DNA from: Deltaproteobacteria bacterium | GTDB taxonomy: Bacteria; Desulfobacterota; Deferrimicrobia; Deferrimicrobiales; Deferrimicrobiaceae | DNA: 64,000 nucleotides | Assembly (NCBI GenBank): GCA_016219515.1 | Contig: JACRMU010000140.1 | Location: 12,279 to 76,278 of the forward strand | Direction: 5' to 3' | In this document: positions 13,694-46,216 of the stretch, one piece after another | How positions within the stretch are numbered: the stretch's first letter is position 1 | Layout of the letters: the number at the start of each line of letters is the position of its first letter | The notes under the pieces: generated by a model | The model's database searches: none | What the model saw: only the letters and a program-made list of their open reading frames with translations | What the model was told of the DNA's origin: nothing | Position numbers and translations under genes: made by a program

Positions 13694-13697
13694 CGCT

Positions 13698-28711: not shown

Positions 28712-28769
28712 CGTCTCTCCCTTTCGCATGGAATCGATTTGCCCGGCATCGGCCGTTGCGCGCCCCGGA

Positions 28770-29489
28770 TCACTTGATGGAGAGGAGCTCCACTTCGAGG
28801 ATCAGCGTCTCGTTCGACCCGATCTTGCGGCCCCCTCCCTGCTCTCCGTAGGCAAGATGGGGGGGGATGAAGAGCTGCCACCTGGAGCCCGTGGGCATGA
28901 GCTTCAACGCTTCCCTCCAGCCGGGGATCACGCCCGCGACGCTCAGCGTCGCGGGTTTGCCCCTGGCATAGGAACTGTCGAACTCCTTGCCGTCGATGAG
29001 GGTTCCGCGGTAGTTGCACTCCACGACGTCGGTGTCCGTCGGCTTCCTGCCGTCCCCCGCTTTGAGGATCTTGTATTGGAGCCCGCTCGGCAGGGCCACG
29101 ACGCCTTCCTTCGTCTTGTTCCCGGCCAGGAAGGCCTCCCCGGCTTTTTTGCTCTCTTCCGCCGACTTCTGCGGGGCCGGGGACTGCTTCAGTTTCTGCG
29201 CGGCCTGCTTCCGAACCATCTCGCTTTGGGCCGCATTCCTGATGGCCATGAGTTCCTGTTCGGTCAGGAGAAGCTTCCCGCCGGACAGCCCGTCCTTCAA
29301 TCCCCTGAGCAGGACCTCGACATCGACCTCGATTTCCTGCTGCCTCAGGACCTTCCCCGTGTCCGCGCCGATGGCGTAGCTTAACTTTTCCTTCGGGGTT
29401 TTCAATGCCGGTGCCTCTTCGGCGCCCGCCTGGGTCGTGAGAAGCGCCATCCCCAGGGTTCCGAGAATGGCCATCCGTTTCAGGACCAT
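28770..29489 (-). CDS. fkpA: Second periplasmic FkpA-like FKBP-type PPIase (tandem paralog), 239 aa
   Basis: Start taken at MVLKRMAILGTLGMALLTTQAGA (signal peptide). GLQYKILKAGDGRKPTDTDVVECNYRGTLIDGKEFD...IPGWREALKLM...WQLFIPPHLAYGEQG. About 60% identical to the downstream copy by eye. Confidence 0.8.
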   Translation of the reverse strand: MVLKRMAILGTLGMALLTTQAGAEEAPALKTPKEKLSYAIGADTGKVLRQQEIEVDVEVLLRGLKDGLSGGKLLLTEQELMAIRNAAQSEMVRKQAAQKLKQSPAPQKSAEESKKAGEAFLAGNKTKEGVVALPSGLQYKILKAGDGRKPTDTDVVECNYRGTLIDGKEFDSSYARGKPATLSVAGVIPGWREALKLMPTGSRWQLFIPPHLAYGEQGGGRKIGSNETLILEVELLSIK

Positions 29490-29652
29490 GAGCTCTCCTT
29501 TCCGATCGAGGATGCAGTCGTTGATACGAAACCTCGGGGCGGCCTGGGGCCGCCCCGAGGATAAGGAATGCAACCACCGTTCAGTGTAACCGTGAGTTTC
29601 CGCCGGCGCCAGGGGCCGGCGCCAGGGGTTGCCTGGCGCCGGCGGCCACGAC

Positions 29653-32600: not shown

Positions 32601-33780
32601 TCCCCATCGCATGGTCGTGGTAGAACATCAACCGGGCGCTCTGCGCGTTGGTGTAGTAAAAGGTCAACGCACCCGGACCGGGATCCGGCATATCGGGAAC
32701 GTTCCGAGCGCTGACGCCCTTCGGATAGGGAGTGGATTCTCCGGCGGGGGTGACCCACTGGTGCGTCGTCCCGTCGCTGATCCAGACGGTGTTGTTGCCG
32801 TGGAGATGGACGGTGGCTCGATTCTGTTTGTACGGTTCACAGGGCATGCCAGGCGTGGGCATCATGGGATCGCAGTCCATGCCCATGGCGTCTTTCGGGC
32901 CCGGCCCGGCCCCCATGACCGTGGGATCCACCGGCAGGAAGAGGTCTCCGCCCGCGCCGGTGGGAAGCAGGTTGTGGAACTTGAGGCGAACCGGCTTGCC
33001 CGGCTGGCCCGGCACGCTCCCCATCGCAACGATGGCGGGCCCCAGGAAATGGGGGTTGTCCACGGCGATGGCCTGCGTGCCATTCGGCATCAGGATCGGA
33101 GTGCCATCGATATTGAACAGGGGAACGTGTTTGCTCACGCCGAAGTTGGCAGGCGTTTCCAGCTGCACGTAGCCCCGATGCTTTGTCGGGGGCAGGTCCG
33201 AATGCATTCTTTCGTTGAATTCGACAAGCGCGATTTCATAGTAGTCGGACGCCGGCGGGTTCGGCCCCGGGAAGCTGACCTGATCCGGAACGGCGACCGG
33301 GATATACTGTCCAAGCAGGTTGGCGCCGGTCGGCCCCAGCCCTGCGACCTTGTCCACGAATTTCCGGATGCCGCCCGTGAGGGGGCCGCCGATCGTCGCT
33401 TCGGCGGTGGCGCCGGCGCCGGTCGCATCCGTGATGTTGACGACGGGCGCGCTATACCCGGTGCCTCCGTTCGTAAGCGTTATGGCGGTGATCGCACCGG
33501 TGGCCGGGTCCACCGTCACTGCGGCGGTTGCGCCGGATCCGCTGCCGTAGAGATCCGCGATGGCGACGACGGGAGCGCTGTACCCGGCGCCCCCGCCCGT
33601 CAGCGTGACGATCGCCACGGAGCCGGTGGGGAGCGGGCTGTAGGCCCAGTTTGGGTACGGTCCGAAGTAATGCGGAACGCCGCCGGGGTCGAGTTGGGCC
33701 CGTGCCGGGCCGACCCCCCAGAAAACGGCGGCGAGCACCAATGTCAAATAGATGAAAATCGAATAGTTCCGCCTGTACAT
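29653..33780 (-). CDS. Giant secreted multicopper oxidase (about 1375 aa) with N-terminal G-rich YSAPVV repeats and three C-terminal fibronectin type-III domains; Geobacter OmpB/OmpC-like
   Basis: Start ATG 33780 after strong SD (AAAGGAGGATGAT). Signal peptide MYRRNYSIFIYLTLVLAAVFWGVGPARA. Copper-ligand motifs HLHGNNTVW (HxH), FYHDHAMGITRLNVYAG (HxH), WHCHILAHEEMDMM (HCHxxxHxxxxM, T1/T3). Three FN3-like repeats each containing (L)xWTDxxxNETGFxxxRS. Confidence 0.8.
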   Translation of the reverse strand: MYRRNYSIFIYLTLVLAAVFWGVGPARAQLDPGGVPHYFGPYPNWAYSPLPTGSVAIVTLTGGGAGYSAPVVAIADLYGSGSGATAAVTVDPATGAITAITLTNGGTGYSAPVVNITDATGAGATAEATIGGPLTGGIRKFVDKVAGLGPTGANLLGQYIPVAVPDQVSFPGPNPPASDYYEIALVEFNERMHSDLPPTKHRGYVQLETPANFGVSKHVPLFNIDGTPILMPNGTQAIAVDNPHFLGPAIVAMGSVPGQPGKPVRLKFHNLLPTGAGGDLFLPVDPTVMGAGPGPKDAMGMDCDPMMPTPGMPCEPYKQNRATVHLHGNNTVWISDGTTHQWVTPAGESTPYPKGVSARNVPDMPDPGPGALTFYYTNAQSARLMFYHDHAMGITRLNVYAGEAAGYVLTDQVEQDMINGTNVSGVNPTNLKVLPDIGIPLVIQDRTFVDASTIANEDPTWNWGTGPRDPATGKITAAVTGDLWYPHVYMPAQNPYDMTGMNPFGRWHYGPWFWPPTTFIAQGPVPNPYFDCGIGGPCTAPWEPPMNPGTPNPSMAGEAFMDTPVVNGTVYPYLEVEPKAYRFRILNAADDRFFNLQFYVAADKNSPTTLGTTGAVLCDGANPVALGDCTEVKMVSAAGTTGIPADWPSGIPDPLTKGPDWIQVGTEGGFLPVPAVIPAQPVTWNLNPTTFNYGNVVDHSLLLGTAERADVVVDFSAFAGKTLILYNDAPAAFPAGIPTYDYFTGAPDQTPAGGAPTPQPGYGPNTRTVMQIRVGTAVTTPTPDVTLANLRSVFAKTATKRGVFEVSQDPIVFPQAAYNSAYNVTNFPGDNVAWLAYVQQIDFSKTFLPIDPAGNFLPAVTLPLEPKALHDEMGGVYDTQFGRMSGMLGLELQGTNSRLGQFIPYGYASPPVEIIKGSVSGSLLGLSDNNTQIWKITHNGVDTHTIHTHLFNAQLINRIGWDGAMLPPDDNELGWKDTFRINPLEHTVIALRPIIPTPAQLPFDVPNSVRLIDPTLPPGVPLVEPPPAGWFDPQGNRITEILNHEVNFGWEYVWHCHILAHEEMDMMHSVAFAVPPSAPSGLGATLLGSPLRVNLAWTDGSLNETGFTIQRSADAGFTTGLNTFTVGANVTIYSDTAVAPNTTYYYRVFASNLVGDTATYPAPSVGFPTMTADSGFSNIASITTIPPTPAAPTNLAATILSSTQIRLNWTDASNNETGFAVWRSINGGAFAQIAAVGPNVTTFTNGGRIAGNTYAYYVTAVNAAGASLPSNTVTVNFRVPATPTGLTGSAVRIPGNLFQDSVTLNWTDNANNETGFQVQRSLFANFSAPTTYNVGANVTTFSQNVSRAFNFYYRVRATNAVGNSGWSNTRFVTTP

Positions 33781-33956
33781 ATCATCCTCCTTTCGTGTGT
33801 GTCCGGTGCGATGTTCCTTTTGGAGTTCCTTCCGACAATCCGCCGTGGCGTTCTTTCCTCGAAATTGTGTCGGTGTCTCTCCATGCGCCCTGTTGTCCAA
33901 GGACACCTCCTTTCTCTCGTTCTTTTCATGGCCGAAGCGGCCCTGTTCTCTTGGGT

Positions 33957-34379
33957 TCATACGTCAGCCTTGGAAAGGCCGTTGTTAACTGCGTCCCCTC
34001 GATCGATCAATCGTTGCAGCGCACTCTCCAGTTCCTCCGCTGAAAACGGTTTCGGGATGAAAGCATCGATGCCTGCCCGCCTCATCTCCTCCGCAAGATC
34101 CGCTTTCGCATAGGCGGTGATCAGGATCGTGACAGGGTGTTTCGACGCCTTCCGGGCCCGTCGAAGGAGGGAGATCCCGTTCTCTCCGGGGAGAAGGTAG
34201 TCGCTGATCACCGCGTCGTAGTCGCCCAGGTTCCCGGTCCGGCAGGCATCCTCGGCGCTCTCGAACGCTTTCACCTGGCACCCTCTTGCCCGAAGGAAGA
34301 GGGCCAGCGATTCGCGCAGCAGCGTGTCGTCCTCGATGATCGCAATCCTTGCCCCTGTCAATGTGCGAGATAAATTCAT
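33957..34379 (-). CDS. Single-domain CheY-like response regulator (receiver only), 140 aa
   Basis: ARIAIIEDDTLLRESLALFLRARGCQVKAFESAEDA...AVISDYLLPGENGISLL...ILITAY (phospho-acceptor Asp and conserved K/T positions). Sits 176 bp upstream of the multicopper oxidase gene on the same strand. Confidence 0.75.
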   Translation of the reverse strand: MNLSRTLTGARIAIIEDDTLLRESLALFLRARGCQVKAFESAEDACRTGNLGDYDAVISDYLLPGENGISLLRRARKASKHPVTILITAYAKADLAEEMRRAGIDAFIPKPFSAEELESALQRLIDRGDAVNNGLSKADV

Positions 34380-34411
34380 CGCGCCCTTTTATGCGGTTTG
34401 CTTTTCCATAC

Positions 34412-34426
34412 GCACGGGACGTGCCA
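34412..34426 (-). promoter_or_regulatory. Sigma-54 (RpoN) -24/-12 promoter upstream of the CheY-like regulator / multicopper oxidase / FkpA gene string
   Basis: Minus-strand sequence TGGCACGTCCCGTGC (consensus TGGCACG-N4-TTGC; only the -13/-12 TT is G/T, GC at -12 conserved). About 34 nt upstream of the ATG at 34379, leaving room for SD AAAAGGG. Immediately downstream of a sigma-54-dependent NtrC-type regulator gene. Confidence 0.6.
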
Positions 34427-34562
34427 ACAGGAAGGACCGGCGAATTCCTCTTTTTTTACGGCAAGAAAGATCAGAGGGGATGCGATTGCCGGCGAAGGAG
34501 AAGAAGGGGTTCTCGAAGAATTTTCACCCGGATCTGGAAGATATTCTATTTTCCCGGGATGG

Positions 34563-35951
34563 TCAGAGGCCGAGTTTTTTCCTGCGGTAGCGGAAGGTGT
34601 GATAGTTGATGTTCAGGAACTGCGCCGCCCGGGTCTCGTTGCCGCCGGCCAGCCGGAGCGCTTCTCCGAAGTAGTGCTTTTCGATCGATTCCTGCACCGA
34701 GGCGAGATCGACCCCTCCCGCCGTCAGCGGAGGCGCCGCGATCCCTCCCGCAAGCCCCGCCGGCCGCGCTCCGGGGCCGGATGGCCCCAGCCGGAGGTCG
34801 GCGGCCACGATCTCCTGCCCCTTGCCCGTAAGGACCGCGCGCTCCACGACGTTGCGCAGCTCCCTCACGTTCCCTTCCCACCCGTGTTCGACCAGCGCCT
34901 TTTCTGCCTCCGGCGAGAAGCCGGCGACGGCCCGGCCGAACTTCCGCGAGAACTCCACGAGGAAGTGGCGGGCGATTGGGAGGATGTCCTCGCGGCGCTC
35001 GGAGAGGGCGGGCACGGCGACCCGCACGACGGCAAGCCGGTAATAGAGGTCCCCGCGGAACGATCCCTTCGCGACGAGGGCATCCAGATCCTTGTTCGTG
35101 GCGGAGACGACCCGCGCGGCGGCGCGGAGCCGCCGCGTCCCCCCGACGCGATAGAACTCCCCGTCCTCCAGGAAGCGGAGGAGCTTCGCCTGGGCCTCCG
35201 CGCCCAGGTCCCCGACCTCGTCGAGGAAGAGCGTCCCGCCGGAGGCCTCCTCCACCAGGCCCTTCTTCCCGGCCTGGCTCGCCCCGGTGAAGGCGCCCTT
35301 CTCGTACCCGAAAAGCTCGCTTTCGATGAGTTGCTTCGGAATGGCGGCGCAGTTGACGCTGACCAGGGGGCCGCGGAAGTTGGGGCTCCGGTAGTGGATT
35401 GCCGCGGCGACAAGCTCCTTCCCCGTTCCCGTCTGCCCGAGGATGAGGACCGGGGTGTCGGGGCTCTTCGCGGCGGATTCGACGAACTCCATGACGTCGC
35501 GGATCGCATGGCTCTCTCCGACGAACAGGGGGACGTTCTCCCGCAGGCACCGCTCCTGCAGCTCGCGCACCTCCTTCTGGAGCCGGATCGTCTCCAGCGC
35601 GTTGCCGATGGTGGTCTCCAGAGTCTCCGTGTGCAGCGGCTTCACCACGTAGTCGAACGCGCCGCCCTTCATCGCCGAGACGACCGTGGAGACATCCTCG
35701 TACGCCGTGATGACGATGGCCAGCACCTCGGGCCGGAGGTCCTTGACCGCCCGGATCCCTTCGATCCCGCTCATCCCCGGAAGCCCGATGTCCATAAGGA
35801 TGAGGTCCGGCGGATCTTTCCCGACGGCCTCCACGGCGGATTCGGCGTCCGCGAAGGTCTCTATCCGGTATCCCGGCTCGAGGGCGATCCGTATCCCTTC
35901 CCTCACGCTTTCCTCGTCGTCCACGATGAAGATCCTGTAGGCGCCTATGAC
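34563..35951 (-). CDS. Sigma-54-dependent Fis-family (NtrC-type) response regulator: receiver + AAA+ sigma-54 activator + HTH, about 462 aa
   Basis: Receiver (YRIFIVDDEESVREG...LILMDIGLPGMSGIEG). AAA+ with GESHAIRDVME, Walker A GQTGTGKE, GAFTGA motif (EKGAFTGASQ), Walker B LFLDEVGDL, R-finger region. C-terminal HTH (RAAQFLNINYHTFRYRRKK). Exact start unclear: no in-frame ATG/GTG near VIGAYRIF, possibly a rare start, and the 5' end overlaps the kinase stop. Confidence 0.8.
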   Translation of the reverse strand, partial: VIGAYRIFIVDDEESVREGIRIALEPGYRIETFADAESAVEAVGKDPPDLILMDIGLPGMSGIEGIRAVKDLRPEVLAIVITAYEDVSTVVSAMKGGAFDYVVKPLHTETLETTIGNALETIRLQKEVRELQERCLRENVPLFVGESHAIRDVMEFVESAAKSPDTPVLILGQTGTGKELVAAAIHYRSPNFRGPLVSVNCAAIPKQLIESELFGYEKGAFTGASQAGKKGLVEEASGGTLFLDEVGDLGAEAQAKLLRFLEDGEFYRVGGTRRLRAAARVVSATNKDLDALVAKGSFRGDLYYRLAVVRVAVPALSERREDILPIARHFLVEFSRKFGRAVAGFSPEAEKALVEHGWEGNVRELRNVVERAVLTGKGQEIVAADLRLGPSGPGARPAGLAGGIAAPPLTAGGVDLASVQESIEKHYFGEALRLAGGNETRAAQFLNINYHTFRYRRKKLGL

Positions 35952-38602
35952 GGACTCCCTTCTTCCTCCAGCGGAAGCTCCACGCGGAATTCCGCGCCGC
36001 CCACTTCCGAGGCCCCGACGGACAGGCGGCCGCCGTGCTCGGAAACGATGCGGTGGCAGAAGGAAAGGCCGATCCCGTGACCTTCTTTTTTTGTCGTGAA
36101 GAATGGATCGAAGATCTTCTCCCGGAGATGCTCGGGGACTCCGGGTCCCGTATCGGCGATCCGGAGGATGGCCTGGCTTCCCTCCCGGGCCGTGCTCACG
36201 GTGAGGCGTTTCCGGGACCCGGCGGTTTCCATCGCCTGGAGGGAGTTCATGACGAGGTTGAGAAGGACCTGTTCCAGGAGGGAGAGGTCCGCGCGGCAGA
36301 AGAGCGGTTCCGGGGAGAGAACCTCGCGGAACTCGACGCCCCGCTTCCGGTTGGTGATCTCCGACAGGGAGAGCGCATCCCGGACGACCCGGTTGACGTC
36401 GATCCGGTCCATCCGCGGGGGGACGGGCTTGGAGAACCTCATGATCCGGTTGATGACCGAGGAGATCTTCTCCGAGGCGGCTTTCGCCTGCGAGACGACC
36501 GCCCGGATCTTTTCCTTCTCTTGCAAATCCATTCCCTCCGCGCGCTCGCAGAGGATGTCCAGGGTGGAGACGTTGATGTTGATCCCGGAGAGGGGGTTGC
36601 GGATCTCGTGGGCGATCCCGGCGGCAAGCTGCCCGATCGAGGCGAGCTTTTCCCGGACCGCGACGATCTGCTCGAGGTCCTTCACGCGGGTGATGTCGAC
36701 CGAGTCGACCAGGTGGGACGCGCCCCCCCGGAAGTTGACCGGACTGGCCTGGCAATGGAGCCAGCGCATCGCTTTGCCCCCGCTCTCCCCATCGGGAAGG
36801 AAAAACCGGATATCCGCGTCCTTCCGGATCCTTTCGGGGCGATCCATCGCGTTGCAGAGTTCCTCGAATTTCCGGGCGTCTTCCGGGTGGACCGTGCCGA
36901 TCTCACGGAACGGGAGCCCGTTGCGGATCCCCCGAAAGAGCTGCTCCTGCCGGGGGTTCCAAAAGACGATCCGCCCTTCCTGGACGATCAGGATGCCGAC
37001 GGACGAATTTTCCACCAGCGACCGGAACCGGTCCTCGCTTTCCTGGAGCGCATCCTGCGCCAGCAGACGGGCAAGCATGACGCCGGCGTTTTCGGCAACC
37101 CGCTCGATCTGCTCCAGGATGTGCGGCTGAAACATCTCCTTGCGCCGGTCGTTCAGTTGAAGCAGTCCGAACGTCGTGTCTCCGAAGCGCAGGGGGACCA
37201 AAGCGATCGATTCGTACCCCTCCCGGATGCACCGGCCGCGGGTGGCGATGTTCCTGATGGGCTCGTTCGCGGCGAGAAGATCGGAGGCGCTGTTGGTCCA
37301 GAACGTTCCGCGGGAGGTGAAGAACGGCAGGGACGGATCGCAGCGTCCCGCGATCACCGCACCGCACGTGCACTCGCAGAGCGGTTCTCCGTTGCCGCCT
37401 CCTTCGCCAGGAGCGCCCCGTTCCGCGGGGCACAGGCTCATTTCGGCCTGTACGAACTCCTCCGAGAAACCCCGGGCCTCGAAATAGGGATAATCGGCGC
37501 CGCTGCGGTAACGGATCCCGACCGCCTCGCACCCGAAGCGTTCTTTCAGGAACGAGGCGAGGGAAGACAGGAACTCCCGGACGCCGCCGATCGGGCCGGT
37601 GCGTTGAAGGAGATCCAGGATCAGCTCGCGCATCTCGGCCGCCCGGCGCCGCTCGGCAAGCTCCTGCTCCAGCCGCGCGTTCGCGGCCTGGAGCTCGGCG
37701 GTCCGCTCGGCCACCCGCGATTCCAGGCCGTCCCGGGCGGCGCGGAGCTCCTCTTCGCTCTTCTTCAGGTTCCGGAACAGCAGATCGTAGGGACGGACAA
37801 GGCCGGTCGCGATGATCGCCTTGTAGACCAGGTAGAACGAGATGACCTTGAAGTAGTGCCCGATCACGCTGTTGTAGACGAAGGCGTCCATGTAGACGGC
37901 GGCCGACATCTCCGCGGCGACCGAGAAGAGCACGGACAGCACCAGCAGGCCCAGCACTTCCCGGTCGAACTGCCTGCGAACCAGCCAAAGGGTACCGATG
38001 GAGAGGAGCTGTATCCCGGAGACGAGGTAGTCGCTCACGCTCTTGGCATGCGTCAGCCCCACCCCGGGGATGTAGTAGTCCGGGAATATCCCGTAGAGCA
38101 CCGAACCGACCAGTGCAAGAGCGATGGCGGAAAAGCCGGCAAGGAAGAGCAAGGGGCGAACCTTGCGGGAAACGAACAAGGGGGCCGCGAGGAGAGCGAA
38201 ACTCTGCAGGTACCGCGCGGCGAACCAGAGCTCGATCGAGTCGCTGTGGTGTTCCTGGGAAAAAACGCCGGCGAAGGAAACGCTGTGCAGGAAATCGATA
38301 AGTCCGACGAACAGGTATGCGATGCCGAGAAAGATGAAGTAGTGGTTGTCGATGAAGTTCCTTGCGTTCCACGTCAGCATGAAAATGCCGCAGGCGACGA
38401 CGACGCTGAACATCTCCGCGATGTCGTGCGCAAGGACGGGGCTCCGCCAGTATGTCGCATAGAGGACGGCAGGGACAAAAAAGACCGCGAGAGCGAGGGG
38501 GAGCCATTTCTCCCGCGGTGGGAAGCCTCCTCCCGTAAAGGATCCGGTCACACTCACGGTATTTCGACCCCCGTTCCGCCGGATTGCGGCCCTGAGAACC
38601 AC
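35945..38602 (-). CDS. Sensor histidine kinase with N-terminal polytopic membrane domain (MASE-like), PAS and GAF domains, HisKA, HATPase_c; 885 aa
   Basis: About 8 TM helices in the first about 270 aa, coiled-coil linker, GAF-like and PAS regions. H-box LAAGIAHEIRNPLSGININ, ATP lid DTGPGVPEHLREKIFDPFFTTKKEGHGIGL. Forms an operon with the NtrC-type regulator (overlapping). Confidence 0.8.
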   Translation of the reverse strand: MVLRAAIRRNGGRNTVSVTGSFTGGGFPPREKWLPLALAVFFVPAVLYATYWRSPVLAHDIAEMFSVVVACGIFMLTWNARNFIDNHYFIFLGIAYLFVGLIDFLHSVSFAGVFSQEHHSDSIELWFAARYLQSFALLAAPLFVSRKVRPLLFLAGFSAIALALVGSVLYGIFPDYYIPGVGLTHAKSVSDYLVSGIQLLSIGTLWLVRRQFDREVLGLLVLSVLFSVAAEMSAAVYMDAFVYNSVIGHYFKVISFYLVYKAIIATGLVRPYDLLFRNLKKSEEELRAARDGLESRVAERTAELQAANARLEQELAERRRAAEMRELILDLLQRTGPIGGVREFLSSLASFLKERFGCEAVGIRYRSGADYPYFEARGFSEEFVQAEMSLCPAERGAPGEGGGNGEPLCECTCGAVIAGRCDPSLPFFTSRGTFWTNSASDLLAANEPIRNIATRGRCIREGYESIALVPLRFGDTTFGLLQLNDRRKEMFQPHILEQIERVAENAGVMLARLLAQDALQESEDRFRSLVENSSVGILIVQEGRIVFWNPRQEQLFRGIRNGLPFREIGTVHPEDARKFEELCNAMDRPERIRKDADIRFFLPDGESGGKAMRWLHCQASPVNFRGGASHLVDSVDITRVKDLEQIVAVREKLASIGQLAAGIAHEIRNPLSGININVSTLDILCERAEGMDLQEKEKIRAVVSQAKAASEKISSVINRIMRFSKPVPPRMDRIDVNRVVRDALSLSEITNRKRGVEFREVLSPEPLFCRADLSLLEQVLLNLVMNSLQAMETAGSRKRLTVSTAREGSQAILRIADTGPGVPEHLREKIFDPFFTTKKEGHGIGLSFCHRIVSEHGGRLSVGASEVGGAEFRVELPLEEEGSPS

Positions 38603-38791
38603 ATTGTACGCCGTTAGATTGCGGGTTTAAGGAATTCGTTGTAACTTCATATTCGATTCAGGCATGCACATCGGCCCCGGCGTCCCGGGAAACGGGGACG
38701 CGGAAGCGCCAAATAAAACGTTTTCCGTTATCCTTGATTTTTGCTATAAAATCCTGCAATTGCCGGGTAAATTGAATTATCTACCAAATTA

Positions 38792-40060
38792 ATGAAGTAT
38801 CATATCCTGAATTCCGAATGTATTAGTAGGTGGGCCGCGCGGTTACCGGCCCGCGCAGGGTTCGACGGGGGGAAGAGGGTGGCGCAGGATTCGGGAATTT
38901 TCCGGGATATCGCTGTCCTGCCGGAACGCTTGGCGGGAACTTCCCCCGGCCGCGTCAGGAGAAGAGGCGCCCGGGAGATACCGCTTTTTCTCGCCTTTAC
39001 CGTTCTGTCGATCCTCTGCATGGCTGTCCCCTCCCTGGCGGCGGAGATCCCCCAATCCGTGAGCCTGTCGATCTGCTGCAACCTGTCTTCTCCGACCGGG
39101 GTTGCGGTGGATGCCGGCGGGAACGTCTACGTGACGGAATCGAGCGGCAACCGGCTTCTTGTCTACAACAAGTTCGGCTCCTTCCAGAGAGAGCTGAAGG
39201 GGCTGAGCAAGCCGACCGGGGTGGCCGTGGATCCCTGGGGGAGGATCTACGTCAGCAACACCGGCGCGAAGACGGTGGACGTCTATGACGTCAATTTGTC
39301 CCCTCTTTTTTCGCTGGGGCGGGGAGCGGTTTCTTTTCTGTTTCCCACCGCGGTGGCCGTGGATTCCGCGGGGTATGCCTTCGTGGCCGACAGCAAGGAC
39401 AACCGGATCAAGGTGTTCGACAGCGCCGGGTCTTTTCTATATTCCTTCGGCGGCAAGGGGAGCGGGGACGGGTATCTGAACTTTCCGGTATCGGTGGCGG
39501 TCAGCGAGAGCGCGGGCGAGGTGATCGTATCGGACCTTACGCCGACCCTGACGGGTTACCGCGGCGCGGGCGTCCAGGTATTTGATCGGACCGGGACGTT
39601 CAAGCGGCGTTTCGGCGGCTACGGTGAAGGGCAGGGCTTGTTCCTCCGTCCGATGGGCGTGGCGGTGGACGGGACCGGCAGGATCTATGTGGCCGATTCG
39701 TACCAGAACGTCGTCCAGGTGTTCGGCTCGAACGGCGCCTTCCTCCAAGGGGTGTTCGATTCGGCGCACCCGGTGCGGACGCCCTTGGGAATCGCCTATT
39801 GCCTGAAGACGGACCGGCTGTTCGTCGCGTCGCTGAACACGTCGAAGGTGGAAGTGTACGGCAACGCACCCCAGGGGGGCTCGGGGGCGGGCGGGGAGAC
39901 GTCGATGACCTTTGGCGGGTCGGGCGGCGGTGGCGGCTGCTCGGTGGTGGGCAATTCCCGGGACGGCGGAGCATCCGTCGACGGATTGCTTCTCCTGGTC
40001 GCCGCTCTGTGGTTCCGGAGGGTCGGGAAAAGGATCAAGACCGCCCGGGCATTTCGATGA
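38792..40060 (+). CDS. NHL-repeat (six-bladed beta-propeller) protein with signal peptide and an unusual Gly/Cys-rich + hydrophobic + basic C-terminal tail, about 375-422 aa
   Basis: Repeated NHL units (GVAVDAGGNVYVTESSGNRLLVYN, GVAVDPWGRIYVSNTGAKTVDVYD, AVAVDSAGYAFVADSKDNRIKVFD, VAVSESAGEVIVSD, GVAVDGTGRIYVADSYQNVVQVF). True start may be the TTG near 38933 (MAGTSPGRVRRRGAREIPLFLAFTVLSILCMAVPSLAAE); the listed ATG 38792 adds a low-complexity leader. Tail GGSGGGGGCSVVGNSRDGGASVDGLLLLVAALWFRRVGKRIK. Confidence 0.65.
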   Translation: MKYHILNSECISRWAARLPARAGFDGGKRVAQDSGIFRDIAVLPERLAGTSPGRVRRRGAREIPLFLAFTVLSILCMAVPSLAAEIPQSVSLSICCNLSSPTGVAVDAGGNVYVTESSGNRLLVYNKFGSFQRELKGLSKPTGVAVDPWGRIYVSNTGAKTVDVYDVNLSPLFSLGRGAVSFLFPTAVAVDSAGYAFVADSKDNRIKVFDSAGSFLYSFGGKGSGDGYLNFPVSVAVSESAGEVIVSDLTPTLTGYRGAGVQVFDRTGTFKRRFGGYGEGQGLFLRPMGVAVDGTGRIYVADSYQNVVQVFGSNGAFLQGVFDSAHPVRTPLGIAYCLKTDRLFVASLNTSKVEVYGNAPQGGSGAGGETSMTFGGSGGGGGCSVVGNSRDGGASVDGLLLLVAALWFRRVGKRIKTARAFR

Positions 40061-40110
40061 ATCGGCGGCCACGGACATTCCGATGATGCGGCGGGCGGCG
40101 GAGAGCTGAC

Positions 40111-43100
40111 ATGTCCAGGTGCTCCCTGAAGATCGCGGTCCTTTTCCTGCTGATCGCGTGCCTGGCCGGTTCCCACGTCCATTCGGGCAACAAGCCGTGG
40201 GATCCCCTGATCTCTCCCTGGATCAAGTCCTATGCGCCCGGGATGAAGACTTCCACGCAAACCATGAAGATCTATCCCCACATCGAACTGAACGATACGG
40301 AGTGCGTGTCCTGCCACTTCGTGAACGACGAGAATCCGGCCCTTCTCCCGGACTGGGCGTACCAGACGCCGGTGGACAACGACGACACGCCGTACAACAA
40401 CCTCTGCCGGCATTGCCACAACGACATCGAGGCGCCTTTTGTGAGGACGCACTCCAGCATCTCCATCGACAACAGCTACGGCAACTGGTCGATGGAGTGC
40501 CGTACCTGCCACGACCCGCACCAACCCGGCCAGCTCATCGGCTACGGGAGCGATGCCTACCTGGATACCGGGATCGTGGGTTCCGTGTCCGACAACGTTC
40601 TGAACACGTCGGGGATGGGGTGGGCCGACAACGTGTACGCGGGGTACCTGGTGGTTCCCAACACCGGCGATGTCGACCACGTCTACAAGATCGGCAGCAA
40701 CTCGGCGAACACCCTGTACGTCGAAGGCCCCATGGACCTGACGAAGGTGGCGGCGGGGAATACGTTTGCGGTGATCCTGGGGAAGAACGTCAAGAGCGCC
40801 GTCACCATTCCCGCGGGTGGAAGCAGCGCGGTGCGGTTTTTCCGTCGGACGGGGGCGAAGTCCTTCGCGGACGGGGACGGCACGTACGACGGGATCTGCG
40901 AAGTCTGCCATACGCAGACGACGCATTTCCGGAACAACGGCGGGGGCTCCGACCCGCTGCACACGAACCAGGACAACGTGCCGGGATCGAGATGCACGAC
41001 GTGCCATTCCCACGTGTACGGGTTCCGCCACGGGGGAGGTGGGGGGGCGGGATGCGGCACAGGATCCACCTGCCACGGCCTGCGGGGGTCGCATCCGACG
41101 CACGTCGGCGGAAGCGGGATGCAGCTTGCCCTTGCCTGTTCCGACTGCCATAACGCATCGAGCATTCCCCTGTTTGCGGACAACCAGACTCTGGCGAACA
41201 CCACGGCGTGCAACACCTGCCACAGCCCGGGTGGCACCTACAACGGGGTGAGCGACCTGAATATCGGGGCGAAGAACAACTGGTCGGCGAGGGTGTACGG
41301 CGCCGACAATCTGCTGAAATCGGGCAAGGAGAAATGGTGCGCCTCCTGCCACGACGAAACGCCCTCGGTGATCGGGGGGGTTAGCGCGCCGAACGTCGTC
41401 GGCAGCGAAAGCGGCTCGTACCCTTACGGGACCGGCTGGGGGTATTACAAGACCGGGCACGGGCTGCCGGCGGACCAGGCCTATGCTTCCAAGGGGGGAT
41501 TATTCCCGCCGTTGCTTGTCGGCGGCTCGCCACCCCGGCCGCTGGGCTGCGACACCTGTCACGACTTCACCACCCGGCACATCGACAACGTTGCCAGGAC
41601 GTACGGGACGCAGGGGGTCGCGCAGGGCGCCTACCGGCAGGGCTACCGGCTGAAGCGGGTCAACGGCCTGGAACCTTTGGTGATTCCGAGGCTGGCGAGC
41701 CAGAACAACGACAACAGTTACCTCCTGTGTGTCCAGTGCCACTATTCGAATGTCTTCTACAACTCGACCGACACCAATACGAACATGAGGAACGGGGGAA
41801 CCAACTACCATAGATACCATTTGAATTACAACAATAACTCCGCCTGGAAATCCGACTGGAGGTCGACCGGGAACAGCGCCATAAGCTGCACGCAGTGCCA
41901 CAACGTCCACGGCAGCACCCGCATGGCGATGGTCAACGACGGGTCGCTCGCAGGGACGCCGCCGGGGATCGTCATGTATTATTACAACACCACTCTTTCC
42001 TTCAGGGACTCGGGCGATCTGACTGCGCCTCCCATCCCCTTGGGCCTCCCGCTCGCATTGAGGGACGGCACCACATTTTACGGGAACACCGTCTATAACG
42101 CCGGCTGCACGGCCTCCTGCCACACATCGGCGAACCGGCTCGACCGCGCCTATGCGACGATGACCGGCCAGGTGTTCAACGTGGCGCCGACGCTTGCCTG
42201 GACGGGGGAAACGGGATACACCGCGGACGGCGTCAGTCCCGATTCCGCCGCTTCGGGGAGCCGGTTCACCTTCCGGGTCAACTATTCGGACAACAACAAC
42301 AACCTCCCGAGTTCCATCCGGGTGCTCCTCGACACGAACAACGACGGGTCTTTCGAGGAAGCTTACGCCATGGCCGCGGCGGATAACGTCGCCGGGAACA
42401 CATACCACGGCAGGATCTACACGAAGACCTTGACGATCACCAACATCGGCAGCAGCACCATGCGGTACAAGTTCGACGCCGCGGACAACGCCGCTCTCGC
42501 CGCCACCGGCCCGCCGACGAGCGAGAACACGCTCACGCTTCTGAACAACGCCCCCGTCCTCTCCTGGACCGGCGAGGCGAATTACGTGACGGACGGCGTG
42601 AACCCGAACGTCGGCGGCAGCGGGGCGACCTTCACCTTCCGGGTCAAGTACACGGATGCCGACGGGGATTGCCCCGACGGGAACGGCGTCAGCGTGGTGA
42701 TCAGCGGGACGACGTACGCGCTCGATCCAGAAGCGGGAGCTTGCGGCACGGGCAGGATCTACTCGAAGGCCGTCCCGATCGTCGCGGCGGGGGACTATAC
42801 TTACCGGTTCACGGCGACGGATGCGGGCGGCAGCGCGGCGACGGGGGATCCCGTGTCGAACCATACCGTGACGGTGCTCTCCTCGGCGAACACCCCTCCC
42901 GTCCTCGACTGGGTGTCCGAAGGGTGCCGGACGGACGGGGTCAAGCCGGCGCTGGGCTTAACGAACGGCGATTTCGAGTTCAAGGTGAATTACACGGACA
43001 TCGGCAACCAGTGCCCGGCGTCGGGGAGCGCGAACATCCAGGTGTGGATCGACCTGGACGACAGCGGGACCTACGAGCCGGGAGAACGGTTCAACCTGAC

Positions 43101-44679
43101 GGAAGAAGCCGCGGGGGGATGCACCACCGGGAAGATCTACAAGGTCACGCGGCAGATTCCCTATGCCGGCAACGGCGTCCTCACCTACCGCTTCTACGCC
43201 TCGAACGGCACCGTGGACGCGATCGGCGATCCGGCGACCACGGATAAATCCCTGACCGTGGTCAGCTCGGCCACCACGACGGGCGTGCGCACGACCGGCG
43301 GGAGCGCCCCCTGGTACGCCACCATCCAGGCGGGGGTCGATGCGGCGCCGCAGAACGGGACCGTGCTGGTTTACCCCGGGACCTACACCGGAAGAATCTG
43401 GCTCAACAATACCGCGCCGATCGACACCGGCAAGACCGTCCGCTCGGTCTGCGGACCGGACCTGACGGTGACCACCAGCGGATCGGGCACACTCGATTCC
43501 GTGTACCTCCAGGCCGACGGTGTGACGATCGACGGCTTCGGCATCACCGGCGGCAGATATGGGGTCTACGCGAGCGGTTCCACATATTCTTATACGATCA
43601 AGAACTGCAAGATTTATAACTCCGCCGTCAATTACAATGGAATCTATTCGCAATCCTCGCAGACCGCGACGGTGGACAACACGGAGATTTTCTCGAATAC
43701 CGCCAACGCTCCGGGTGCGGGCCTTCGGGTTTCAAGCGCAACCAGCCTCGTTCTCAGCAATTCCTACATCCATAACAACACGTCAACCTCGGCCAGCGGC
43801 GACGGCGGCGGCCTGTACCTCGACATCGTGACCAATGCCTCGATTTCGAACACGGTGATATCGGGAAACACCACCGCGCGGGACGGCGGAGGGGTGGGGA
43901 TAATGACCAACAGCAACGTGGTATTCGATCGTGTGACGATCACCGGAAACACGGCCACGGCGAAGGGAGGCGGTATCAACGCGGTAAGCGGAAGCACCAT
44001 TACCATCAACAACAGCCTCATTGCGAACAACACCGCCGGTACGAACGGCGGCGCACTCTACCCCACGTTGAACCCTGTCGTGGTCAACAACTCCACCATC
44101 GCCTTCAACCGCGCGAGCTCAGGCGGCGGAATCTACTGGTCGGATATCCGCACCGTCACCGAATATATCCGGAACTCCATCCTGTGGGGGAACAGCGCCT
44201 CGGGAAACGGCCAGACGATGTATATCAATTTGGCCCCCGCATCCGGCGCCACCCTTCATATCTCCGATTCGATCATGCCCGACGACAACGACGGCTCGAA
44301 TTACAATTATCCGTATTTCAATTCTCCGAAGGGCGTCGACACCAGCGGCAACATGTCATACAACGATCCATTCTTCGTCTATCCCGAAGGCCGCGACTAT
44401 CACCTGCAGTCCGTGTCGCCGGCCATCGATCATGCCAACCCGGCCACAGCGACTTCCTACGACCTCGACAACGTGGCCAGGACGCAGGGGGCCGGTCCCG
44501 ATATCGGCGCCTATGAGTACCAGGCGGGCGGGTCGGGCCCCGCCCGTTCCCCTTCGCGTCGGAATGGGATCGCCGTCGGGACGACGCTGCAGAAAAGCGG
44601 TTCGATGACTCCGGAGGAGTACGACCGGAATTTCCTCTCGGATACCGCCTCGCCGATCACGGTGTATCCCGCACCCTGA
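40111..44679 (+). CDS. Giant secreted multihaem c-type cytochrome (11 canonical CXXCH plus 2 atypical Cys-His motifs) fused to three Ig-like about 110-aa repeats and a C-terminal right-handed parallel beta-helix (pectate-lyase-like) domain; 1522 aa
   Basis: Signal peptide MSRCSLKIAVLFLLIACLAGSHVHS. Haem motifs CVSCH, CRHCH, CRTCH, CEVCH, CTTCH, CSDCH, CNTCH, CASCH, CDTCH, CVQCH, CTQCH plus CGTGSTCH and CTASCH within the first about 690 aa. Three repeats W(T/V)GExxYxxDGVxP...FxFxVxYxD. Then beta-helix repeats (NNTSTSASGDGGGLYLD/ISGNTTARDGGGVGI/ITGNTATAKGGGINA...) ending with the DIGAYEY cap motif. Confidence 0.8.
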   Translation: MSRCSLKIAVLFLLIACLAGSHVHSGNKPWDPLISPWIKSYAPGMKTSTQTMKIYPHIELNDTECVSCHFVNDENPALLPDWAYQTPVDNDDTPYNNLCRHCHNDIEAPFVRTHSSISIDNSYGNWSMECRTCHDPHQPGQLIGYGSDAYLDTGIVGSVSDNVLNTSGMGWADNVYAGYLVVPNTGDVDHVYKIGSNSANTLYVEGPMDLTKVAAGNTFAVILGKNVKSAVTIPAGGSSAVRFFRRTGAKSFADGDGTYDGICEVCHTQTTHFRNNGGGSDPLHTNQDNVPGSRCTTCHSHVYGFRHGGGGGAGCGTGSTCHGLRGSHPTHVGGSGMQLALACSDCHNASSIPLFADNQTLANTTACNTCHSPGGTYNGVSDLNIGAKNNWSARVYGADNLLKSGKEKWCASCHDETPSVIGGVSAPNVVGSESGSYPYGTGWGYYKTGHGLPADQAYASKGGLFPPLLVGGSPPRPLGCDTCHDFTTRHIDNVARTYGTQGVAQGAYRQGYRLKRVNGLEPLVIPRLASQNNDNSYLLCVQCHYSNVFYNSTDTNTNMRNGGTNYHRYHLNYNNNSAWKSDWRSTGNSAISCTQCHNVHGSTRMAMVNDGSLAGTPPGIVMYYYNTTLSFRDSGDLTAPPIPLGLPLALRDGTTFYGNTVYNAGCTASCHTSANRLDRAYATMTGQVFNVAPTLAWTGETGYTADGVSPDSAASGSRFTFRVNYSDNNNNLPSSIRVLLDTNNDGSFEEAYAMAAADNVAGNTYHGRIYTKTLTITNIGSSTMRYKFDAADNAALAATGPPTSENTLTLLNNAPVLSWTGEANYVTDGVNPNVGGSGATFTFRVKYTDADGDCPDGNGVSVVISGTTYALDPEAGACGTGRIYSKAVPIVAAGDYTYRFTATDAGGSAATGDPVSNHTVTVLSSANTPPVLDWVSEGCRTDGVKPALGLTNGDFEFKVNYTDIGNQCPASGSANIQVWIDLDDSGTYEPGERFNLTEEAAGGCTTGKIYKVTRQIPYAGNGVLTYRFYASNGTVDAIGDPATTDKSLTVVSSATTTGVRTTGGSAPWYATIQAGVDAAPQNGTVLVYPGTYTGRIWLNNTAPIDTGKTVRSVCGPDLTVTTSGSGTLDSVYLQADGVTIDGFGITGGRYGVYASGSTYSYTIKNCKIYNSAVNYNGIYSQSSQTATVDNTEIFSNTANAPGAGLRVSSATSLVLSNSYIHNNTSTSASGDGGGLYLDIVTNASISNTVISGNTTARDGGGVGIMTNSNVVFDRVTITGNTATAKGGGINAVSGSTITINNSLIANNTAGTNGGALYPTLNPVVVNNSTIAFNRASSGGGIYWSDIRTVTEYIRNSILWGNSASGNGQTMYINLAPASGATLHISDSIMPDDNDGSNYNYPYFNSPKGVDTSGNMSYNDPFFVYPEGRDYHLQSVSPAIDHANPATATSYDLDNVARTQGAGPDIGAYEYQAGGSGPARSPSRRNGIAVGTTLQKSGSMTPEEYDRNFLSDTASPITVYPAP

Positions 44680-44714
44680 CCTTCCCCATCGCCGGGATCG
44701 TGTAGAATCGGGGA

Positions 44715-45236
44715 ATGGCCGATTCGATTCCGATCCTGGTCAGCGCCTGCCTGCTCGGGAAGAACGTCCGCTTCGACGGCGGGCACAAGCGGGATCCGTT
44801 TCTCCTGGAAACCTTTGGAACCTTCGTCCGGTGGATTCCCGTATGCCCGGAGGTCGGGTGCGGGCTTTCCACTCCCCGGGAGCCGATGTGCCTTGCCGGA
44901 GACCCGGACGCACCCCGCCTGGTCGGGGTGGGGAGCGGGACCGATCACACGGAACGGATGATGCGGTGGGCGAAGGTCCGGCTCCGGGAGTTGGAATCGA
45001 TCGGTCTGTGCGGCTACATCTGCAAGAAGAATTCGCCGAGCTGTTCGGGGATCGGGCGGATCGACGTCGTCGGCGATTCGGGAGCCGCGGCGGGTCCCGG
45101 CTCCGGAATATTCACGAAGGCGTTCGTGGAGCGTTTCCCCCACGTGCCGGTGGAGGAGGAGGGACGTCTCAGGGACCCGGTCGTGAGGGAAACGTTCCTG
45201 GAGAAGGTTTTCGCGTTATCGTCACGTTCAGCATGA
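44715..45236 (+). CDS. DUF523 family protein (putative Fe-S thiouracil-desulfidase-like), 173 aa
   Basis: N-terminus IPILVSACLLGKNVRFDGGHKRD and Cys-rich core (WIPVCPEVGCGL, CGYICKKNSPSCSG) characteristic of DUF523. The 3' end overlaps the convergent downstream gene, so the C-terminus is uncertain. Confidence 0.55.
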   Translation: MADSIPILVSACLLGKNVRFDGGHKRDPFLLETFGTFVRWIPVCPEVGCGLSTPREPMCLAGDPDAPRLVGVGSGTDHTERMMRWAKVRLRELESIGLCGYICKKNSPSCSGIGRIDVVGDSGAAAGPGSGIFTKAFVERFPHVPVEEEGRLRDPVVRETFLEKVFALSSRSA

Positions 45237-46179
45237 GGTCCGGCGTGAAGGCGGGCTTGATGTTTTCCGTAATGGAGAATTCGTAGATGTACCTGTCGGA
45301 AGCGTACCTGTAGCCGAGGGAGGCGAGCGCTGGCCTTTTCTTCAGGGAAGGAAAGGTCAATCCGTCTTGTGGAAGCGGGGAGTCCTGGATGAAATATTGC
45401 CCCACGACGCTGCTGCGCGCCGATAGCGCGGCCTCGAGGGCCAGCGCCCCGTAGCGGTAATCGTCGACCGGGAGCCGGACATAGCCGCGGATGTCTCCCG
45501 CGAAGACCTTGCCTATATTTGCGTGTACCCCGATCCTTTCGCCGAATTTCCCGTCGACCAGAAGCGCGATCCTCTTGTCCGGGCTCCCGTTCCCGTACCC
45601 CTTCCTTGCGCTGCCCGTGGGAAATTCCAGGTCCGCCGCCAGGGCCGCGGCGAATCCGCGGGCGGAGAAGAGGGACCGCTTCACGTGCCCCCTGACATCC
45701 CCCAACCCGATCCGGCCGCTCTCTCCCCGGAGGACCGTCTGTCCGTCTTTCTTCACCTCGAAGAGAAAACGGTTCGCCGACTCCCCGGCTTTCCCCGAAT
45801 CGATTCCGAACGCACGGTGGAACTTGTCGATCCCTTTATCGAGGAAGCCGCTGCCGAACGATCGAAAGGGGATGTCGACGCCCAGCTCGAAGATACCGGA
45901 TACGATTTTCCTGTATCTCAGTTCCAGCTCGGTCACTTCCGTGTCGATGCGGAAGTCGTACCCGTTGTCCGATTCGATGAAATCCACGCTCGAATGCGTC
46001 AGGCCGAGCGACAGGAAGTTCCGGTAGGTCGCGGGTTCCGGGGACGGGGCGTCGAGGACGGCCGCCAGCGGGAAGGAATTTTTCACGTGGAGCGGACCGT
46101 CCAAAGCATGCGAGACGGCTGCGGAGAAAAACCATGCCAGGCCGAAGACCGCCGCGACGGCCGCGCGACTGGTTTTCAT
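45169..46179 (-). CDS. Hypothetical secreted/outer-membrane protein (DUF3187-like?), about 336 aa
   Basis: Signal peptide MKTSRAAVAAVFGLAWFFSAAVSHA. Beta-rich composition with alternating aromatic/hydrophobic pattern. Last gene of the dctPQM-iorAB-paaK string. No recognisable catalytic motif. Confidence 0.45.
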   Translation of the reverse strand: MKTSRAAVAAVFGLAWFFSAAVSHALDGPLHVKNSFPLAAVLDAPSPEPATYRNFLSLGLTHSSVDFIESDNGYDFRIDTEVTELELRYRKIVSGIFELGVDIPFRSFGSGFLDKGIDKFHRAFGIDSGKAGESANRFLFEVKKDGQTVLRGESGRIGLGDVRGHVKRSLFSARGFAAALAADLEFPTGSARKGYGNGSPDKRIALLVDGKFGERIGVHANIGKVFAGDIRGYVRLPVDDYRYGALALEAALSARSSVVGQYFIQDSPLPQDGLTFPSLKKRPALASLGYRYASDRYIYEFSITENIKPAFTPDLMLNVTITRKPSPGTFPSRPGP

Positions 46180-46216
46180 CGGGATCCGATAACTTTTCAA
46201 CAATTAATTTCCGGCT

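Follow-up and report, generated by a model that had tools for sequence, protein, structure and literature searches.

A two-gene locus pairing an NHL-repeat propeller with a secreted 13-haem cytochrome that carries Ig-like and beta-helix domains: a candidate for surface-tethered electron transfer

How does a long chain of haems come to be joined, in one secreted polypeptide, to domains of the kind that adhesins carry, and what might such a protein do for the cell? This question is raised by a locus within a 64,000-nucleotide stretch of DNA, hereafter the window, from a member of the Deferrimicrobiaceae (Deltaproteobacteria bacterium, GenBank assembly GCA_016219515.1, contig JACRMU010000140.1, positions 12,279 to 76,278 of the forward strand). 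Two open reading frames (ORFs) lie there on the same strand, 50 nucleotides (nt) apart in the ORF listing: the first encodes an NHL-repeat protein of 422 amino acids (aa), and the second a 1522-aa product in which a signal peptide, a multihaem cytochrome module, three immunoglobulin-like (Ig-like) repeats and a beta-helix follow one another. The molecular details of extracellular electron transfer have been worked out for just a handful of cytochromes, such as the Mtr proteins and the OmcS, OmcE and OmcZ filaments. On the evidence set out below, the balance tips slightly in favour of a two-gene operon for an exported, anchored NHL propeller and a Sec-exported 13-haem cytochrome, which would be tethered by a non-catalytic, adhesin-type beta-helix and would move electrons.

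Both ORFs and the spacing between them lie where a preliminary description of this stretch had put them, and its parsing of the larger product (signal peptide, 11 CXXCH plus two atypical motifs, three repeats, a beta-helix and a DIGAYEY cap) has been borne out. The GC content at third codon positions (GC3) is 0.80 in the NHL ORF and 0.84 in the cytochrome ORF, which are coding-type values within a window of 60-68% GC; inside the 1522-aa gene it is uniformly high, with no break in composition. The cytochrome, encoded by the sole ORF of the window with more than two CXXCH motifs, is identical in sequence to the NCBI entry 'MAG: hypothetical protein HZB63_09725 [Deltaproteobacteria bacterium]'. 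The term 'undescribed', applied to the module at first, is thus overstated, since the protein is already in NCBI and published work had remarked on each of its two unusual features. Five homologues (P0002-P0006), at 74-85% identity, have the same full-length architecture. The contigs of P0002-P0005 belong to six assemblies (Logan SRR22388139, SRR16110276, SRR13723397 and SRR13723394; JGI 3300038439; NCBI GCA_016218975.1), to which P0006 adds another (JGI 3300041014).

All 13 haem motifs are found inside aa 65-671. Eleven are canonical CXXCH motifs (aa 65, 99, 130, 263, 295, 343, 367, 410, 480, 540 and 593), and two are atypical, namely CGTGSTCH (CX5CH) at aa 315 and CTASCH (CX3CH) at aa 666. 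In an alignment of 52 homologues (35-86% identity), each of the 13 sites is conserved at 90% or more, and both atypical sites are ordinary CXXCH motifs in most distant homologues, which therefore have 13 canonical motifs. Because the atypical motifs align with canonical ones, the module is to be counted as having 13 haem sites rather than about 12; judging from the alignment, the clade of the window protein has small insertions in otherwise normal haem sites. Ten conserved His residues outside the motifs were flagged in the same alignment (114, 137, 301, 328, 331, 450, 490, 567, 570 and 600), and others taken from the consensus line bring the total to at least 13; these could serve as distal ligands. 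Neither a motif scan nor the alignment revealed a CXXCK or other catalytic-type haem site in the module. The haems are predicted to be mostly bis-His ligated, for which there are enough conserved His residues.

The Pfam matches of the module are composite (MtrC/MtrF_II-IV, Cytochrome_C7, Cytochrom_c3_2 and Paired_CXXCH_1). An AlphaFold2 (AF2) model of aa 1-705 reached a pLDDT of 60.5, and its confident part is the inserted, haem-free beta domain alone. A Foldseek search of the PDB with this model gave nothing significant, with matches to the small beta domain alone, and a sequence-profile search of the PDB returned no related solved cytochrome beyond weak local matches to NrfA. At the N-terminus, anchoring as a lipoprotein through the lipobox-like LIAC17 was considered and rejected: none of the five homologues at 74-85% identity has this Cys, their signal peptides ending in LAGSGAHSG/DKPW. 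Since the lipobox is not kept in the closest homologues, the signal peptide of the cytochrome is an ordinary one of type I.

The part behind the haem module could be modelled well. AlphaFold2 placed aa 690-1522 with a pLDDT of 87 and a pTM of 0.84 (39 aligned sequences), in the order three beta-sandwiches, right-handed beta-helix and 49-residue disordered tail; the structural check suggested at the outset thus gave the handedness of the helix and its position behind the Ig-like repeats, and no haem geometry. The three repeats share 33-45% pairwise identity, with z-scores of 19-29 against shuffled sequence, and in Foldseek searches of the PDB the sandwiches match the tandem Ig arrays of the adhesins FdeC (4e9l) and SiiE (2yn3) as well as xanthanase (6fhj). 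The beta-helix matches GH87 (6k0v) and GH28 (2uve) structures in Foldseek, and Rhombotarget A (9cdu, 1.4e-5) and pectinesterases in PDB sequence-profile searches; the profile search, too, returned xanthanase 6fhj. Its coils repeat N-x-[AT]...GG[GA][LIV], which is the pattern of Pmp-type adhesin repeats, and Pfam Beta_helix is found in the close homologues P0003 and P0004. The near-invariant positions are almost all part of the Asn/Gly ladder, with a few Val, Thr or Pro residues and Asp1464 in the cap; in the sequence alignment, no conserved acidic or basic cluster suggestive of a catalytic site was seen among the beta-helix columns. The DIGAYEY sequence lies inside a match to the NCBIfam model choice-of-anchor Q (NF041518; 42.1 bits against a cut-off of 25, aa 1430-1471). 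The tail that follows the helix has no NCBIfam match to a sorting signal, nor have the five homologues scanned, and a C-terminal beta-barrel translocator of the autotransporter type is absent from the cytochrome, in which the beta-helix is followed by 49 disordered residues.

The upstream gene encodes an NHL-repeat protein, as had been proposed: Pfam NHL (PF01436) matches it in four stretches (E = 1.5e-30; 104.2 bits against a cut-off of 20), and six blade motifs of the form 'GVAVD..G.IYV.D' were counted by eye in the translation. The sorting-like tail that had been ascribed to it is also present, with a run of Gly followed by Cys, a hydrophobic helix and a basic end. The tail pattern G-C-S-[VM]-AG, helix, R/K is common to the NHL proteins of three related loci (L001, L077 and L079), and its sequence resembles a sorting signal or a membrane anchor. 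The MYXO-CTERM model (TIGR03901) reached 8.2 bits on this tail against a cut-off of 20 (E = 3.3), the layout being similar by eye only. Across the loci, NHL partners bear signal peptides, lipoboxes or C-terminal anchors.

Is the NHL gene tied to the cytochrome, or is it simply a neighbour? The two genes share 4 nt in L001, an 85%-identical relative in which they overlap, and the pair recurs in L001, L077, L078 and L079, which agrees with the probable co-transcription proposed earlier. In L079, Flp/TadE pilus genes stand upstream of the pair in place of the MASE3 histidine kinase found in the window; because the pair is kept there despite different upstream neighbours, it appears to move together. 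Adjacency was counted in the 69 loci (of 80) where ORF calling recovered an ORF with the haem module, and as a raw count an NHL protein is encoded on the same strand in 16 of them, immediately adjacent in 10 of those 16. Beyond these 16, L042 and L043 have NHL repeats and the haem module within one polypeptide. Such fusions extend to P0035 (1860 aa), which joins NHL repeats, haem module, beta-helix and choice-of-anchor Q, and to P0116, a similar fusion; being natural fusions, these four cases are strong evidence for a functional link between the NHL protein and the cytochrome. The co-occurrence of NHL repeats, multihaem module and beta-helix, suggested at first as something to be looked for elsewhere, is thus found, for example in P0035 and in Desulfobulbaceae clusters, where one succession of genes is conserved: hexahaem cytochrome, NHL protein of 1150 aa, TPR protein, cytochrome-beta-helix protein of 2600-2737 aa and PKD/BNR surface protein.

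The haem module itself is widespread, in more than 12 phyla including archaea. A phmmer search of 1.84 billion representatives with aa 1-705 as the query gave 1170 matches at E<=1e-3, 872 at <=1e-10 and 429 at <=1e-30, many of them 1500-4200 aa long. The claim that no cytochrome with this architecture is known was therefore overstated, as there are hundreds of homologues with the same haem module and a beta-helix. A profile scan of one genome per GTDB species found 73 loci, all but two from metagenome-assembled genomes (MAGs). The bacteria belong to the Nitrospirota, Desulfobacterota, Gammaproteobacteria, Acidobacteriota, Calditrichota, Spirochaetota, Actinomycetota, Chloroflexota, Planctomycetota, Gemmatimonadota and Bacteroidota, and the archaea to the Methanosarcinaceae, Syntrophoarchaeum and the Methanophagales. 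By our own count, Pfam Beta_helix or NosD occurs in well over half of the best 120 full-length homologues, among which GEVED, Big_5, Kelch, RCC1, LamG, Calx-beta, NHL and, in P0104, pectinesterase domains are also found. POMP_repeat and Chlam_PMP matches occur in homologues, including an Actinomycetota relative with Chlam_PMP repeats, and, among the archaea, relatives from Syntrophoarchaeum have F5/8 type C and those from the Methanophagales three Golvesin_C domains. Because homologues swap their non-haem domains in this way, the haem module appears to be a portable cassette joined to exchangeable surface-binding modules; the swapping or extension of the beta-helix likewise points to an exchangeable binding module. 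As a separate observation, a Geobacteraceae MAG (L010, 3521..18865, plus strand) has three consecutive giant cytochrome genes, each with a region related to the haem module; their products of 1825, 1574 and 1554 aa carry 19, 17 and 21 CXXCH motifs, respectively.

Table 1. Features of the locus and of the adjacent regulatory genes (positions are those of the window)
Feature	Position	Strand	Basis
Divergent regulatory cassette	33957..38602	-	Pfam; candidate regulators only
Single-domain response regulator	33957..34379	-	Pfam
NtrC-type sigma-54 activator	about 34566..35945	-	Pfam
MASE3 histidine kinase	35945..38602	-	Pfam
Conserved leader, lying before the annotated NHL start and reaching across it; probably non-coding	38745..38950	+	DNA conservation
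NHL-repeat six-bladed beta-propeller gene	38792..40060	+	Pfam NHL; 87% identical orthologue beside cytochrome in L001
NHL protein signal peptide (RRRGAREIPLFLAFTVLSILCMAVPSLAA / EIP)	38957..39043	+	Read from translation; kept in L001
NHL protein C-terminal tail: Gly-rich linker, GGGGGCS, hydrophobic helix LLLLVAALWF, basic cluster	39872..40057	+	Translation
Gene for 1522-aa secreted protein: 13-haem cytochrome, three Ig-like domains, beta-helix	40111..44679	+	ORF, domains, homologues
Type I signal peptide, about aa 1-26, cleavage near HSG/N	40111..40188	+	Translation; closest homologues
13-haem c-type cytochrome module, aa 57-671	40279..42123	+	11 CXXCH, CX5CH, CX3CH; Pfam; conservation
Beta domain without haems, inserted after haem site 3 and before site 4, about aa 138-250	40522..40860	+	AF2 pLDDT >90; weak Pfam fn3_5
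Ig-like beta-sandwich repeat 1, aa 690-811	42178..42543	+	AF2, repeat statistics, Foldseek
Ig-like beta-sandwich repeat 2, aa 812-926	42544..42888	+	AF2, repeat statistics
Ig-like beta-sandwich repeat 3, aa 927-1050	42889..43260	+	AF2, repeat statistics
Right-handed parallel beta-helix, about aa 1060-1470	43288..44520	+	AF2 pLDDT mostly >90; Foldseek; PDB profile
Choice-of-anchor Q motif capping the beta-helix, includes DIGAYEY, aa 1430-1471	44398..44523	+	NF041518
Disordered C-terminal tail, aa 1474-1522	44530..44676	+	pLDDT <50; partly conserved among close homologues

How might such a pair work? In the reading favoured here, the haem chain would link the cell envelope to an external partner by moving electrons between the two, and the Ig-like stalk and beta-helix would hold that chain on a surface, which might be a polysaccharide of the cell itself or of a partner, the extracellular matrix, a partner cell or a mineral. 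The NHL propeller, held to the membrane by its C-terminal sorting-like tail, would dock the cytochrome at the membrane or stabilise it there. An extracellular location is best supported by the adhesin-like domains and by homologues in monoderm bacteria and archaea, in which export by itself brings a protein to the surface of the cell; for the diderm considered here we infer this location, and likewise the target of the beta-helix, the docking role of the NHL protein and the direction of electron flow.

Several points weigh against this reading, including the putative export of the cytochrome beyond the periplasm. The protein has neither a lipobox nor, at its C-terminus, a sorting signal that can be made out, and among the genes next to the pair in the window none was recognised as encoding a porin, a multihaem cytochrome of the periplasm or a component of type II secretion. 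The target of the beta-helix is conjectural and, given the low pLDDT of 60.5 mentioned above, so are the packing and ligation of the haems.

The alternative that survives best, although we consider it rather unlikely, is a periplasmic or inner-membrane-associated scaffold that is docked on the NHL protein and uses its Ig-like and beta-helix domains to bind peptidoglycan or a periplasmic partner. It would account for a type I signal peptide accompanied by no outer-membrane sorting feature and no secretion gene nearby, and an unprocessed tail would indeed anchor the NHL protein in the inner membrane; moreover, homologues weakly match NosD, a beta-helix protein of the periplasm. However, a protein of 1522 aa (2600-4200 aa in relatives) with an adhesin-like stalk fits this scaffold poorly, it is in surface proteins that choice-of-anchor Q and Pmp-type repeats are typically found, and the archaeal and monoderm homologues have no periplasm bounded by an outer membrane.

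It is less probable still that the protein is a redox enzyme, with a catalytic beta-helix (carbohydrate-active, or handling sulfur or metals) to which the haem chain supplies electrons or from which it removes them. The resemblance of the beta-helix to GH28, GH87 and pectinesterase structures, the Pfam pectinesterase domain in P0104 and the NosD-type matches in homologues are all compatible with such an enzyme. Nonetheless, in the sequence alignment no conserved residues of the beta-helix look catalytic, homologues freely carry binding domains that are not enzymes in place of the non-haem part, and lyases and hydrolases of the beta-helix fold need, to our knowledge, no redox cofactor.

A subunit of a polymerising cytochrome filament (nanowire), decorated or anchored by the non-haem domains, has only a slender chance of being the right description: the large, linear multihaem module is of the type proposed for UetJ, which is discussed below, and for long Desulfuromonadia cytochromes, whereas PDB searches revealed no sequence relationship to OmcS, OmcE or OmcZ, no sign of ligation between subunits was seen, and about 830 aa of bulky non-haem domains are attached to each chain. 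That an assembly chimera or pseudogene has joined unrelated cytochrome and beta-helix genes can be dismissed as practically excluded, because P0002-P0006 share the full-length architecture on contigs from independent assemblies, GC3 is uniformly high at 0.84 and the composition shows no break; nothing was found that speaks for a chimera.

The favoured two-gene operon has a surrounding of its own. The divergent cassette upstream holds candidate regulators, of which the MASE3 kinase also stands upstream of the pair in L001 and L078 and not in L079. As an NtrC-type activator is encoded next to the pair, a sigma-54 promoter was sought upstream of the NHL gene, where no match was found. A sigma-54-like site, TGGCACGTCCCGTGCG, lies at 34411..34426 (minus strand), just upstream of the response regulator gene; matches of equal quality occur at chance frequency in the window. 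Scans for sigma-70 promoters and terminators likewise gave chance-level results.

The DNA around the annotated NHL start is unusually conserved: the leader listed in Table 1 is about 99% identical to that of L001 (3455..3660), against about 88% for the coding DNA downstream. The leader of L078 (about 4700..4990) shares blocks with it, carries a 14-nt frame-breaking indel and lacks an ATG where the annotated start would fall. It is thus probable that 30-46 codons at the beginning of the NHL ORF belong to a conserved non-coding leader and not to the protein, and the DNA alignment suggests that the true, in-frame start is probably GTG at 38879 or TTG at 38930. The element looks like a 5' leader or an operator. 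Rfam gave zero matches at E<=1 over 38300-45400, the folding energy of the leader is no better than that of shuffled sequences (z = 0.78), and a leader pattern of 22 specified bases had no match in JGI metagenomes.

On the other side of the pair, a DUF3187 gene and a 2-thiouracil desulfurase gene were considered as parts of the module and rejected, since they are not kept with the pair in L077, L078 or L079. The DUF3187 protein (45169..46203, minus strand) has a signal peptide; it is conserved in L001, missing at the corresponding position of L077 and not found in the flanks retrieved for L078 and L079. Across the kinase/regulator cassette from the pair, 29653..33960 (minus strand) encodes a 1435-aa protein with multicopper oxidase and fibronectin type III domains, which we take to recall the Geobacter multicopper proteins OmpB and OmpC that are linked to Fe(III) oxide reduction. 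Directly downstream of it are two tandem genes for FKBP-type peptidyl-prolyl isomerases (PPIases) with signal peptides (28010..28729 and 28770..29573, both minus strand). Further away, the window contains narG (1524 bits, above the cut-off) and narH (619 bits), the region coordinates being 11020..17579, 9576..10961 and 17273..18118 (minus strand). Small ORFs are found where narJ and narI would sit, followed by a candidate transporter gene, and narG is preceded, a short way upstream, by the gene for a dihaem c-type cytochrome. Besides producing exported cytochromes, this organism is thus likely to respire nitrate.

What would the cytochrome and its NHL partner mean beyond this organism? The locus belongs to a large, unnamed family of haem modules that spans more than a dozen phyla and is known almost only from metagenome-assembled genomes. 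The recurrence in it of adhesin-type fusions and of an NHL partner points to a general means of keeping electron conduits attached to the surfaces that they target. It is tempting, although distinctly tentative, to regard the 13-haem module as the mark of an unnamed cross-phylum class of 'redox adhesins', in which a portable cassette combined with interchangeable glycan- or surface-binding domains would both attach and wire cells, with the NHL protein as a dock. The module is found in the Methanophagales (ANME-1), Syntrophoarchaeum and Methanosarcinaceae as well as in Desulfobulbaceae and Thermodesulfobacteriota MAGs, a distribution compatible with a function in direct interspecies electron transfer. 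If the general means of attachment were confirmed, it would explain how attachment is combined with electron exchange in uncultured organisms of sediment and groundwater, including syntrophic consortia, and NHL propellers would gain a defined role in such systems.

Among known systems, the Shewanella surface cytochromes MtrC, OmcA, UndA and MtrF come to mind first. Members of the OmcA/MtrC family have a lipoprotein signal peptide and work with an MtrA/MtrB-type periplasmic decahaem cytochrome and porin, which are often encoded nearby. Like them, the window protein has a beta domain set between haems (in its case haems 3 and 4), the Shewanella proteins alternating haem domains with haem-free beta domains. 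However, it has 13 haems instead of the 10-11 of MtrC and OmcA, no conserved lipobox, no mtrAB-type neighbours, and additional Ig-like and beta-helix domains. Among the family models, TIGR03507 (OmcA/MtrC family) gave no match at E<=0.1, and PF22113 (MtrC/MtrF domain II/IV) matches partially (46.4 bits, aa 57-137). Nor is the haem region that of a known, characterised decahaem family, since TIGR03508 (DmsE/MtrA family) matches partially over aa 477-610 with 43.5 bits against a cut-off of 192.2 and NF041028 (GSU2203 family) reaches 22.6 bits against a cut-off of 325.

For the C-terminal half, the nearest likeness is with choice-of-anchor Q or Pmp-type surface proteins (NF041518, Rhombotarget A 9cdu and the Chlamydia Pmp repeats), which share the cap and beta-helix. 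Those proteins have no cytochrome module, whereas the window protein lacks both an autotransporter barrel and a GlyGly-CTERM. For the NHL gene, a precedent is offered by Desulfovibrio ferrophilus, in which NHL propellers encoded beside outer-membrane cytochromes have been proposed to stabilise the complex (PMC5815863; PMC9769857). The likeness is by description: NHL genes stand among genes for outer-surface multihaem cytochromes in strain IS5 (DFE_0448-0451 and DFE_0461-0465), as does Gmet_0556 of Geobacter metallireducens, but the D. ferrophilus clusters encode several smaller cytochromes and no beta-helix fusion.

How new, then, is the combination? A survey of Desulfuromonadia cytochromes reported many uncharacterised cytochromes with novel beta-sheet domains and makes no mention of NHL, pectin or propeller domains (PMC11492766). 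Literature that pairs beta-helix or pectin-lyase terms with multihaem cytochromes yielded the description of the ANME multihaem cytochromes (MHC) of type C alone. Within the literature searched, the 13-haem family, its form with C-terminal Ig-like domains and beta-helix, and its breadth have been neither named nor tested. The novelty claimed in the preliminary description thus stands in so far as no member was found to have been characterised experimentally, and falls in so far as comparative genomics had already noted both features.

The ANME proteins are large archaeal cytochromes with a pectin-lyase-type domain that has been proposed to recognise the cell walls of partners (PMC9012536, Chadwick et al. 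2022). They likewise join many c-type haems and a pectin-lyase-fold beta-helix in one polypeptide, the haem parts being compared here by description. In MHC type C, however, the beta-helix is N-terminal, the protein is archaeal and the haems are many more, whereas in the bacterial window protein the beta-helix is C-terminal, behind three Ig-like domains; moreover, the archaeal relatives of the window haem module carry F5/8 type C or Golvesin_C domains, unlike the pectin-lyase domain of MHC type C. The initial idea of a surface electron conduit that docks through its beta-helix is therefore reasonable, being essentially the proposal of Chadwick et al. for these proteins (PMC9012536), with the extracellular location and the ligand both putative.

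The closest parallel in gene order is the Uet cluster of Candidatus Tenderia electrophaga, in which the NHL proteins UetH and UetI are encoded directly before the extracellular undecahaem cytochrome UetJ (10.1101/2022.05.06.490989); the cluster also occurs in some Gallionella (PMC9900912). In both systems an exported NHL gene lies immediately upstream of that for a large cytochrome with at least 11 haems, whose annotations are only of the 'doubled CXXCH / cytochrome c3' type; the comparison is by description and not by sequence, and UetJ itself (fig|6666666.657277.peg.3443) is treated as a pseudogene by NCBI. UetJ is reported without any other domain, whereas the window protein adds about 830 aa of Ig-like domains and beta-helix, and the porin UetC, the PPIase UetB, the trihaem c7 proteins UetD, UetE and UetG (UetDEG) and the cupredoxin UetF have no counterparts beside the window pair. 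The two FKBP-type PPIase genes mentioned above lie about 9 kb from the pair, and the Uet cluster, too, includes a PPIase (UetB). A Calditrichaceae MAG provides a further locus of this kind (L013, 1488..12535, plus strand), which encodes first an NHL protein, a tetrahaem cytochrome, a PPIase-like protein (by eye) and a 15-haem cytochrome, and then a 655-aa ORF resembling an outer-membrane barrel (by eye), an NHL protein and a distant, 17-haem relative of the window haem module. Its composition is close to that of the Uet cluster, which suggests that the two systems are related. Seen beside these systems, the window pair is a well-documented candidate rather than a surprise, as exported multihaem cytochromes with surface-binding fusions and NHL partners have already been noted.

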